From sequence record PZ154897.1: a DNA stretch of 64,000 nucleotides. The stretch is one strand, 5' to 3'. The notes beneath the pieces are model-generated. The model made no database searches. It was not told the DNA's origin and worked only from the letters and a program-made list of their open reading frames with translations. Below, piece by piece: positions 38,569 through 49,868 of the stretch. The first letter of the stretch is position 1. Every line of letters starts with the position of its first letter. The stretch comes from a phage. Made by a program: the position numbers and the translations under genes.

Positions 38569-38847
38569 TTATTCTTTAAATCTAATCAATTTATTCATAG
38601 ACTTTGAAACTTCTGCACGAACCTCATGTAGGTTTTTAAGCTGTTCAAGACGCTGCTCATAGTAAGCAATTTCATCTTCTTCGAGACAGTCCTGTGAATC
38701 TTCTTTAAGATAACGCGCATAGTCCTGGAAAGCTTTACGGACTACTTCCTGGAAGTCATCAAGACTTTGAATTTTCTTAGGAGCAACAGATACACGACGA
38801 GGGGCAGTATAATACTCATAACCAAACCCTGCGCTTAATTGAGCCAT
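38569..38847 (-). CDS. hypothetical protein (vs.3 position)
   Basis: ORF trimmed to internal Met [13 protein letters not shown]... (92 aa). Confidence 0.4.
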
Positions 38848-39149
38848 TAATATTTTTCCTCTGGTTGGAACACAGCACGACAAGCCCACATACTGGCTTC
38901 TTTGAGTTTCGTTTTAGCAATAGTTAACTGATCAAGACTTTCAGCATAATTCTTTGCGAATTCGCAGTCTTCACAATTATCTAATGCTTCCCAGAATTCA
39001 TCGTATAAAGCATCAAAGATAAGTCCTAAACGAACTTCAGCGTCTTTGATAGCATTCACTTTACTGATTTTATCGTCAGTATGTGGCTTATAACCTTTAA
39101 TATCTTCAATCATATTTGACTTCCTCACCAGTGCATAAATCATATTCAA
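38847..39149 (-). CDS. hypothetical ~100-aa protein at the vs.4 position (candidate Acb2-type sponge by synteny only)
   Basis: second ORF after regB; size near T4 Vs.4; no sequence-level confirmation possible here. Confidence 0.35.
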
Positions 39150-39327
39150 CTAAACGAATAGGTTCATGAATGCCATATCCCTGAACAGAAATTTCTGTCG
39201 TAGGATAAATTCCACTAATATCACCCATATTCCACGCTTCATTAAATTGCTGTTCGCCTGAATTACTAAACCATTCGGCGAAAGCATTTAGCACATCTTT
39301 AGAACCTTCAATAATTATCTTTGCCAT
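39106..39327 (-). CDS. hypothetical small protein
   Basis: 73-aa ORF. Confidence 0.4.
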   Translation of the reverse strand: MAKIIIEGSKDVLNAFAEWFSNSGEQQFNEAWNMGDISGIYPTTEISVQGYGIHEPIRLVEYDLCTGEEVKYD

Positions 39328-39689
39328 TACAGACTCTCGGTAAAGGTACGAGCGATAACGTCGCGCTGCTGTTCCGGAGTCAGAGAGTTAAAGCGAACTG
39401 CATAACCGGATACACGGATGGTCAGCTGCGGATATTTTTCCGGATGCTTAACTGCATCTTCCAGAGTTTCACGACGCAGAACGTTAACGTTCAGGTGTTG
39501 ACCACCTTCAATTTTAACTGTAGGTTGTGTTTCAATTTCAATTTCACGGGCATGCAAACCATAGAAAATTTCTGGGTCTACAAAAGAGTCCTCTTTAAAG
39601 GTTTTAGAGACAATAATTCGTGCTTGAATACCGTCTTCAAAATAAATAGTACCTTTATGCGTGCCTTCAAGAATTTGATATGCTTTCAT
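39327..39689 (-). CDS. autonomous glycyl-radical cofactor (GrcA/YfiD-like)
   Basis: C-terminal ~60 aa [59 protein letters not shown] carry the RVSGY glycyl-radical motif; local GC and codon usage enterobacterial-like. Confidence 0.85.
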
Positions 39690-39697
39690 ATAACCTC

Positions 39698-40024
39698 TCA
39701 ATTAGAAAATAAATTTATCCAAGATTGCTCTTTAATTAAAAATGGCTCAGAATCATATGCCATTAAACTTTGGGTAATTAGTCCTTTAAAAGGCCCATCA
39801 ATAAATTCCATGGTAAAATATGGAATTTTATTCATTAATCTTGCATTAGGAGCAGTGCACAAAACTCTGCATCCTTTGAATACGCCTTTTTGTAATTTGT
39901 ATTGCTTAGGATAAAATTCGCTCAAGACGTTGTTATTTGCCAAAATTTCAAAATGATTCACCAATTTATTTTTAATAGTTTTTGGCGAAAAATAAAGATA
40001 TTCGAAAAGTTGCGTGTCTGTCAT
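39698..40024 (-). CDS. hypothetical protein
   Basis: ORF trimmed to internal Met ([15 protein letters not shown]...). Confidence 0.4.
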
Positions 40025-40611
40025 CATTGCATTCCAATCACAAAAAATTGAGGACGAGTAATACCACCAATGCAACATTTACTATTGCAGCAGTACTGTA
40101 CAGTGTCAATATGAGCATCATAAATCTTATCCATATCAGGAGATTTGACAGGCTCATCAATTATATATAAAATTCGCGAAAGAGATAAACCTCTGAACTT
40201 GCTTCCTTTATTACCAATAAAACTACACACAGAATCAGTAAATAAACGAAAACGTATATCATCATTAGAATAACGCGAAAATTCCTTTTTGATGTTATCT
40301 GCAGAAATTTTAGCATAAGCTGAACTATTAGAAAGAACAATAACTGTTCCACCGTCATACAACCAATTAGCGGCAAAATTAGTTACTGCAATTGATTTAC
40401 CGGATTGACGTCCACCATCTAGTCGAAGTGTGCAATACTGCTTAAGTAAGTCTTCAAATGGCAGGATATATTCGTTTTTACAAATTTCTTCTACTCTAGC
40501 ATCAGAATGGTGTGTAAAAGCATTCATCAGGGATAGATAAGGACCAGTTAAAAATGTTCTCATTTTGTTATCTCTAAATTTGGGCCATTCCGTGGCGCAT
40601 GAATTGTCCAT
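40024..40611 (-). CDS. small P-loop NTPase-like protein
   Basis: 195 aa; Walker A-like GGRQSGKS and Walker B-like ILYIIDEP. Confidence 0.45.
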   Translation of the reverse strand: MDNSCATEWPKFRDNKMRTFLTGPYLSLMNAFTHHSDARVEEICKNEYILPFEDLLKQYCTLRLDGGRQSGKSIAVTNFAANWLYDGGTVIVLSNSSAYAKISADNIKKEFSRYSNDDIRFRLFTDSVCSFIGNKGSKFRGLSLSRILYIIDEPVKSPDMDKIYDAHIDTVQYCCNSKCCIGGITRPQFFVIGMQ

Positions 40612-40708
40612 TTCTGTATTTACCCATTACCGCACTTGGGCTCGACCTTATTACAGGTTGGCGGGAATCCCTCATAGAATCATGAGGTCCAGGTTATTCC
40701 CATGTTAT

Positions 40709-41125
40709 TTAAATGTAAATATTTTTGCCGTAATACTTGTACCAGTGTGGCTTCATTAAAATTTTTTCATCGAGTCGTTGTTGACTCAACCTAATAGCTG
40801 ATTTGCATGGATTATAATCATTTTTCCATTCTACTGGAATATCACTGATGTCAGGAACTTCAGTATCTTTTATACTAAACCCGCGTTTTAAGCATTCCGT
40901 TATAATGTCTGATTGACGCTTTCGCAAAAATTCTAACTTATCGTAAAAGAACGTAACATGACCAGAACCTAAAATAAACTCGGAAGATATTTTAAAATCT
41001 TTAACTCGTTTACCATTTGCCACGTGTTTACGAATTATACCAAAAACACGTGGCAATTCACGGTATTCTGCGATTAAATGCTGATCAGCAAGTTCAGATA
41101 CTAAAGTCAAATTAATACGAGTCAT
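40709..41125 (-). CDS. denV: endonuclease V (pyrimidine-dimer DNA glycosylase) DenV
   Basis: 138 aa [29 protein letters not shown]...WYKYYGK matches T4 endo V from memory. Confidence 0.95.
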
Positions 41126-41148
41126 TTTATCCCTCCAAGTAACTGTGA

Positions 41149-41181
41149 ATATACTATCACAGTTACTTGGAGAAAGTAAAC
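41149..41181 (-). promoter_or_regulatory. early sigma70-type promoter upstream of denV
   Basis: minus-strand GTTTAC (41176-41181) and TGATAGTATAT (41149-41159). Confidence 0.5.
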
Positions 41182-41185
41182 AACT

Positions 41186-48714: not shown

Positions 48715-48737
48715 TTTATTCTCCTCAGTAATTGATA

Positions 48738-48772
48738 GGGTAATAGTATCACACTACTACCCAGAAGTAAAC
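48738..48772 (-). promoter_or_regulatory. early-type promoter, cassette copy 1 of 3 (TGATACTATTACC)
   Basis: minus-strand GTTTAC (48767-48772) and TGATACTATTACCC (48738-48751). Confidence 0.5.
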
Positions 48773-48775
48773 AAC

Positions 48776-49000
48776 TTATTCCGCTCCAGCAGCTTTCAAA
48801 AGCTTTTTAAGATTAACAGTGCCACGAGCAGAAAACGTGACTTTACCATCCTTTTCACTAATAGAGCCAGTTAACTTAGAAAGTTTATCGCTAGGAATTT
48901 TTTTAAAATCACTTAATGTACCATCAAAAGTTTTCGTAACAATTGGTAGTTCATCTTCATGTCTTTTAGCTTCATTGATAAATTCTTGATATGTTTTCAT
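48776..49000 (-). CDS. internal-protein-like ORF with capsid-targeting leader MKTYQEFINEA
   Basis: 74 aa from Met5 of the ORF-track product; leader matches the T4 IP consensus MKTYQEFIAE. Confidence 0.55.
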   Translation of the reverse strand: MKTYQEFINEAKRHEDELPIVTKTFDGTLSDFKKIPSDKLSKLTGSISEKDGKVTFSARGTVNLKKLLKAAGAE

Positions 49001-49030
49001 TTTGATTTCCATTTAGTTTTGTTTTGATAG

Positions 49031-49064
49031 GGTAATAGTATCACAACTAAACCACCGTGTAAAC
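49031..49064 (-). promoter_or_regulatory. early-type promoter, cassette copy 2 of 3
   Basis: minus-strand GTTTAC (49059-49064) and TGATACTATTACC (49031-49043). Confidence 0.5.
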
Positions 49065-49067
49065 AAT

Positions 49068-49340
49068 TTATTTTAAATAAATTGCATATTTTTTATAACC
49101 AGCCGTCTCGTGACGCAGACCTTTTTCATTAGCAAAGCGTTCAATATTATTAATTTGATTCTGATCAAGTTCTGAAATATCAAATACAAAAAAGTTTCGT
49201 TTATTTCCTAACGTTACATGATTCGTCAAATCAATGTTATAAAGATGATTTATATTATCAATCATAGTCTTAACAGATTTGCTAATTTTTACTTCTTCAT
49301 TAAGAGCAGATTCAACGATAAACTCTTTGAAAGTTTTCAT
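49068..49340 (-). CDS. internal-protein-like ORF with capsid-targeting leader MKTFKEFIVE
   Basis: 90-aa ORF; N-terminus fits the IP leader pattern. Confidence 0.5.
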   Translation of the reverse strand: MKTFKEFIVESALNEEVKISKSVKTMIDNINHLYNIDLTNHVTLGNKRNFFVFDISELDQNQINNIERFANEKGLRHETAGYKKYAIYLK

Positions 49341-49366
49341 TTTATTTTCCTAATTAATTTTGATGA

Positions 49367-49400
49367 GGTAATAGTATCACAACTAAAACCCCGTGTAAAC
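49367..49400 (-). promoter_or_regulatory. early-type promoter, cassette copy 3 of 3
   Basis: minus-strand GTTTAC (49395-49400) and TGATACTATTACC (49367-49379); shared upstream TTTTCACAAAGTTGTTTAC. Confidence 0.5.
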
Positions 49401-49412
49401 AACTTTGTGAAA

Positions 49413-49868
49413 TTATTTTAAATCATCTGCCCAATCGAGTTTAAGAGGCTCTTTATATTCACGATCTAATACGACCGGAATTTGTACATCACCGCTAAAT
49501 GATAAGGGTCCAACATTATAAGACAATGTTATATGCGGTGTGTAATCATCAAAATCATGTGTAGCACCTAGTGCCCGCGCATACATGTGTCGACAGCGCA
49601 GATATTCAGAATCTAGCACAAGTACAAGAGTCGATCCATCTTGTGTTTTCCATACTTCTAAATGTCCAGAAGAAGCTACTTCAAAACTTCCACTCGATGG
49701 AACATATGGAACATTTACTCTCGAATAACATATGGTCGAATGAATTTTTTCTCTAGGAACTGGATTAGGAACACGTAAAGAGCGCTGGAGTTCTTCCAGC
49801 GCATCAAGTGTTAATTCTGAAAACTTAGCTGCTACATAAAGACCCGTTGAAAAGTCTTTAAATTCCAT
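49413..49868 (-). CDS. 57B: gp57B, 2H-phosphoesterase (the T4 ortholog is the anti-CBASS cyclic-oligonucleotide phosphodiesterase Acb1)
   Basis: 151 aa; two H-x-T/S motifs ([16 protein letters not shown]); position upstream of 57A as in T4. Confidence 0.8.

Follow-up and report, generated by a model that had tools for sequence, protein, structure and literature searches.

The 64,000-nucleotide stretch of phage DNA analysed here (sequence record PZ154897.1, termed the window) is, judging by its sequence, an ordinary mosaic segment of a T4-like (Tequatrovirus) genome. Its minus strand carries two genes directed at CBASS (antiphage signalling based on cyclic oligonucleotides): acb1, known in T4 as gene 57B (49413..49868), and acb2, known in T4 as vs.4 (38847..39113). 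The former encodes a predicted anti-CBASS 2H phosphoesterase of 151 amino acids, and the latter a predicted cyclic-dinucleotide sponge of 88 amino acids, for which the start has been corrected. With these genes, T4 degrades or sequesters the cyclic-nucleotide alarm signals of bacterial CBASS; the gene pair is already known and the genus is a common one. That the present genome is T4-like and shares both anti-CBASS genes with T4 is close to certain. The attribution draws on the identity or near-identity of the two proteins to their T4 counterparts, on gene order and start sites, on purifying selection and on the conservation of all residues that have been tested experimentally; catalysis, ligand binding and the phenotype in vivo would be expected from the published experiments on T4.

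The 57B open reading frame (ORF) encodes a protein that is identical to residues 2-152 of T4 Acb1 (gp57B, NP_049750.1), the founding member of the family, at 151 of 151 positions. The genes themselves differ at five nucleotides, all of them synonymous (5 synonymous to 0 nonsynonymous). The Pfam model PF23474, “Anti-CBASS protein Acb1”, is matched over its full length (positions 1-144 of 144) with 202.7 bits, the cutoff being 27. The structural representative of the family, Acb1 of Erwinia phage FBB1 (structures 7T26/7T27), is matched through 7T26 with E = 4.1e-62 over query residues 8-148. Homologues of at least 99% identity occur in 499 phage records.

The sequence-only reading that preceded this analysis had recognised a 57B orthologue of the Acb1 type by the motifs KIHST and PHITL. 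Both are found in the translation, at 49734..49748 and 49524..49538 on the minus strand, and the identity to the T4 protein confirms the type. Within them lie the two catalytic H-x-T motifs, HST (H43-S44-T45, equivalent to T4 H44/T46) at 49734..49742 and HIT (H112-I113-T114, equivalent to T4 H113/T115) at 49527..49535. In T4 numbering, the active-site tetrad of Acb1 comprises H44, T46, H113 and T115 (Hobbs et al. 2022, PMC9117128), and both motifs that contribute to it are present. The C-terminus, corresponding to the lid (residues 145-152), is also identical to that of T4. With its sequence aligning from end to end to the solved FBB1 Acb1, the protein appears to have the 2H phosphoesterase fold and a C-terminal lid that would close over the substrate.

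The name given to 57B in databases points to a different function. It is labelled “RNA ligase” in the T4 RefSeq entry, in phrog_755 and in several phage records, and the 2H phosphoesterase fold is common to 57B and LigT. On these grounds, 57B could be a LigT-like 2H RNA ligase or RNA-repair enzyme for which cyclic-nucleotide cleavage is not the main role. However, the label rests on fold-level homology as opposed to an assay, and the best curated model for the protein is the Pfam Acb1 family. In addition, T4 57B was found by activity-guided fractionation as a 3′3′-cyclic GMP-AMP (3′3′-cGAMP)-cleaving activity, its H44A/H113A double mutant is catalytically dead, and the T4 acb1 deletion mutant loses CBASS evasion, being CBASS-sensitive in plaque assays (Hobbs et al. 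2022, PMC9117128). A ligase or repair enzyme is therefore very improbable. As the protein sequence is the same as that of T4 Acb1, these experimental results transfer directly, and the Acb1 encoded here is expected to cleave CBASS signals as T4 Acb1 does. As a small 2H phosphoesterase, it would hold the cyclic oligonucleotide in a strained state over the HxT/HxT tetrad and cut the 3′-5′ bond on the 3′ side of an adenosine, through metal-independent acid-base catalysis.

As in T4, acb1 is located directly downstream of 57A and gene 1. The TAA stop codon of 57A (49868..50110, minus strand), which encodes the tail-fibre chaperone, overlaps the acb1 ATG by 1 nucleotide. At the 57A/57B junction (49866..49874, minus strand), T4 reads GAATGATGG, with the first ATG annotated as the start of 57B, and the phage described here reads GAATAATGG. 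The core of the junction is ATGATG in T4 and ATAATG here, so that 57A ends in TAA instead of TGA. With ATAATG in place of ATGATG, Acb1 can start only at the second methionine, and the extra N-terminal methionine annotated in T4 is missing. This suggests that the second methionine is the functional start of Acb1 in general.

The acb2 gene had been proposed tentatively, through synteny alone, as the second gene after regB. In rising coordinates, regB (38047..38508) is followed by vs.3 (38569..38847) and then by the candidate, matching the T4 order of regB, vs.3 and vs.4, with vs.5 on the far side in both genomes. The proposal is borne out by the protein itself. It is identical to T4 Vs.4 (NP_049728.1), also of 88 amino acids, at 85 of 88 positions (97%), and matches PDB 7UQ2, “Vs.4”, with E = 7.5e-56. 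It scores 70.6 bits against the Pfam model PF24729, Acb2_Tad1_hairpin (cutoff 27), and matches phrog_717 with E = 3.8e-32, a PHROG that Jenson et al. 2023 (PMC10097602) equate with the Vs.4 family. Comparison with T4 Acb1 and Acb2 thus yields clear matches for both proteins, including the similarity to Vs.4 on which the candidate depended.

The extent of acb2 required revision at its 5′ end. The ORF first put forward, of 100 amino acids at 38847..39149 on the minus strand, does exist and is the longest in its frame, beginning at a TTG. A 100-amino acid product initiated at this TTG is nonetheless hardly credible. On inspection of the sequence upstream of the TTG at 39149, no Shine–Dalgarno sequence was found that is comparable to the GAGGAA at 39121..39126 (minus strand), which lies within the 3′ end of vs.5, 7 nucleotides before an ATG at 39113. 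This GAGGAA is identical in T4 and in phage EC128, both of which annotate vs.4 as 267 nucleotides. The crystallised, functional Vs.4 construct and the T4 annotation begin at MIEDIK, and the phrog_717 and Pfam matches begin at residues 1-7 of the 88-amino acid form. The additional 36 nucleotides (39114..39149, minus strand) fall wholly within vs.5 and are a spurious extension. The real start of acb2 is the ATG at 39113.

The genes on either side are tightly packed against acb2. Upstream, the stop codon of vs.5 (39106..39327, minus strand, 73 amino acids, with a full-length match to phrog_1986) overlaps the acb2 start by 8 nucleotides; downstream, the TAA stop of acb2 overlaps the vs.3 ATG by 1 nucleotide. 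The vs.5 gene is intact here and in EC128, whereas the T4 reference carries a 1-nucleotide deletion (TTTCG-CGAG versus TTTCGCCGAA). The resulting frameshift shortens the T4 product to 58 amino acids and ends the gene 36 nucleotides before acb2.

Studies of T4 Vs.4 have identified the residues on which its function depends (Jenson et al. 2023, PMC10097602). The protein binds cGAMP with a dissociation constant (Kd) of ~30 nM and forms a hexamer that holds three cGAMP molecules. The ligand is contacted through stacking by Y8 and F82, and through Y8, H11, K23 and R79. Hexamerisation requires L29, A66, A73, A77 and, in part, F33; mutation of these residues abolishes oligomerisation and binding, partly so for F33. 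The alleles T12I, S74N and A77I result in loss of function (PMC10097602). In the protein encoded here, Y8, H11, T12, K23, L29, F33, A66, A73, S74, A77, R79 and F82 are all conserved. The residues of the cyclic-dinucleotide pocket (Y8, H11, K23, R79 and F82, and also S74) stand at their T4 positions, and those of the hexamerisation interface (L29, F33, A66, A73 and A77) are all kept. The segment YKPHT (Y8-K9-P10-H11-T12; 39078..39092, minus strand) supplies the base-stacking tyrosine, the ligand-contacting histidine and the helix-cap threonine, and RAVF (R79-A80-V81-F82; 38868..38879, minus strand) supplies a ligand salt bridge and base stacking (PMC10097602). Following the T4 model, the 88-amino acid helical protein would assemble into a hexamer with three dimer interfaces, each of them holding a single cyclic dinucleotide by Y8/F82 stacking and contacts from H11, K23 and R79. 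The signal would be sequestered without being degraded.

The only segment that differs from T4 is located at 39063..39077 on the minus strand, where D13, D14 and S17 replace E13, E14 and G17. The three changes (E13D, E14D and G17S) are conservative and spare every residue with a demonstrated role in binding cGAMP or in assembling the hexamer. At the nucleotide level, 15 codons of vs.4 differ from T4, 12 of them synonymously and 3 nonsynonymously; together with the 5:0 ratio in 57B, this indicates purifying selection. A protein identical to the one encoded here occurs in phage vB_EcoM_SP1. Among phage records, 18 carry an Acb2 of at least 99% identity and 1234 carry a homologue.

It might be considered that this allele is functionally impaired, similar to that of phage T2, and perhaps selected by defences of the Panoptes type, which employ decoy nucleotides. 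Naturally inactivated acb2 alleles have been reported in T2 and PaMx41 (PMC12657218), and the three substitutions adjoin H11 and T12, the latter being the site of the loss-of-function change T12I (PMC10097602). Yet every residue with a tested role is intact, the ORF is of full length, the 12:3 ratio argues for constraint, and the same or nearly the same protein is maintained in the other phages mentioned. An impaired allele is accordingly considered most unlikely, and a functional Acb2 of the T4 type is the favoured reading.

The ligand range of such a protein can be anticipated from a comparison with Pseudomonas phage PaMx33. Acb2 of this phage belongs to the same Pfam family, Acb2_Tad1_hairpin, and likewise forms a hexamer that sponges cyclic dinucleotides in three pockets, but T4-Acb2 is only ~24% identical to it. 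The broad-spectrum proteins of the PaMx33/JBD67 type have a second pocket that accepts cyclic trinucleotides (cA3, cAAG), which the T4 type lacks. T4-Acb2 has a Kd of ~84 nM for 3′3′-cGAMP and shares its dinucleotide ligands with PaMx33-Acb2, but binds neither cA3 nor cAAG (Cao et al., PMC10312549). This has been attributed to a smaller pocket and to clashes from Y37, A57, L60, D61 and T64, and a D61R mutant still fails to bind cA3 or cAAG (PMC10312549). All five of these residues are retained in the present protein, and the position equivalent to R67 of PaMx33 is occupied by D61, as in T4. Judged by these positions, the open cA3 pocket of the broad-spectrum type (equivalents of PaMx33 R67 and T74 and a kinked helix) is not present. 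Given the retention of these residues, the protein belongs with the T4 type and should take up dinucleotides alone, which would leave cyclic trinucleotides, e.g., cAAA, to Acb1, in keeping with the complementary two-protein arrangement described for T4 (Cao et al., PMC10312549).

T4 Acb2 binds the Panoptes decoy 2′,3′-c-di-AMP with a Kd of ~62 nM and is needed to trigger Panoptes and also suffices for it, while deletion of acb1 is without effect (PMC12657218). Y8A and F82C abolish triggering, F82C being an escape allele with diminished binding, and T2, in which the Acb2 binding site is mutated, is not restricted (PMC12657218). Since the Acb2 pocket is intact here, the phage is predicted to be visible, and sensitive, to the Panoptes decoy-nucleotide system.

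It is conceivable, though only just, that the D13/D14/S17 allele is adaptive and shifts ligand selectivity, e.g., by lowering the affinity for 2′,3′-c-di-AMP and preserving that for 3′3′-cGAMP. The sole pointer to such a shift is the location of the changes directly after H11 and T12. Were it real, the phage would evade CBASS without tripping Panoptes. Other Tequatrovirus Acb2 alleles, e.g., that of Bas38, still trigger the system.

Two points weigh against assigning a T4-like anti-CBASS function to the pair. The first is that the Acb2 allele differs at positions 13, 14 and 17 from the T4 protein that was assayed, at sites adjoining H11 and T12. The second concerns expression. Scans for consensus sigma-70 promoters and for terminators around both genes showed no excess over shuffled sequence (10 versus 11.2 +/- 3.3, and 19 versus 14.1 +/- 3.4), although the sigma-70 consensus does not cover the middle and late promoters of T4 and the scan says nothing on expression. 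We thus infer expression of acb1 and acb2 solely from identity with the T4 organisation.

The significance of these assignments lies mainly in annotation, and no new biology is revealed. Many phage records still describe the two products as “RNA ligase” or “hypothetical protein”, and acb1 and acb2 can be named with confidence. The phage is predicted to resist CBASS signalling that employs 3′3′-cGAMP, cUA or cAAA, and to be sensitive to decoy defences of the Panoptes type, which detect Acb2. These predictions are of use for the choice of therapeutic phages and for host-range prediction.

The surrounding sequence is typical of the genus. The region 38000..50200 gives megablast matches in 1124 phage records, the best being Tequatrovirus genomes. 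EC128 covers 96% of this region at 94.4% identity, SHFML-11 shows 95.4% identity, and T4 covers 90% at 93% identity. With a 25-kb query, no identical genome was found among the records of the phage collection, SfPhi01 and SHFML-11 being the best matches with ~95.5% identity across 93-94% of the length. Over stretches of 12-25 kb, DNA identity to T4, EC128, SHFML-11 and SfPhi01 amounts to 93-96%.

Every gene between 36.5 and 51.5 kb is carried on the minus strand and arranged in T4 order: tk.4, vs, vs.1, regB, vs.3-vs.8, denV, e, nudE, the e.x genes, a tRNA cluster with segB, trna.2-4, internal-protein genes, 57B, 57A, gene 1 and gene 3. The span 38847..49868, originally presented as a single anti-CBASS feature, does contain both genes, but a distance of 10.3 kb and ~25 unrelated genes (vs.5-vs.8, denV, e, nudE, the e.x genes, tRNAs, segB and the internal proteins) separate them. 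An “anti-CBASS island” was rejected, since what lies between the two is the standard complement of T4 genes. The acb1 and acb2 genes are separate, forming neither an operon nor an island, and the span merely brackets them.

The window departs from T4 in its internal-protein genes. T4 has ipII and ipIII between denV and e; both are missing here, so that denV (40709..41125) adjoins e (41186..41680) across the gap 41125..41186, an arrangement common to EC128. Three minus-strand ORFs, at 49068..49340, 48776..49012 and 45545..46003, open with the N-terminal capsid-targeting stretch of T4 internal proteins (MKTFKEFIVES, MKTYQEFINEA and MKSYAQFLNEAS), with bodies just 15-18% identical to T4 IPI, IPII or IPIII. 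Their matches are to phrog_7673 “internal head protein”, phrog_8765 “internal virion protein” and phrog_2280, a family of unknown function. At the ipI locus, the T4-type gene is replaced by two such ORFs. The product of T4 ipI is an injected internal protein that inhibits the GmrSD restriction enzyme, and the ORFs found here may encode injected proteins with other targets.

Further genes of the region are of note. The Tk.4 orthologue (36684..37163, minus strand) contains a macro domain (Pfam Macro, E = 1.3e-7; phrog_335 “phosphatase”). As domains of this kind bind or hydrolyse derivatives of ADP-ribose, a role for this protein against ADP-ribose-based host defences is conceivable. A glycine-radical domain (Pfam Gly_radical, E = 2.3e-18) is present at the C-terminus of the vs.6 orthologue (39327..39701, minus strand), which is labelled autonomous glycyl radical cofactor GrcA in related phage records. 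A cluster of eight tRNA genes (46398..47756, minus strand) comprises Arg, “Met” with a CAT anticodon, Thr, Ser, Pro, Gly, Leu and Gln. As in T4, segB (46478..47143), which encodes a GIY-YIG homing endonuclease, interrupts the cluster. The tRNA with the CAT anticodon is called Met by ARAGORN, whereas the corresponding T4 gene is annotated as tRNA-Ile.

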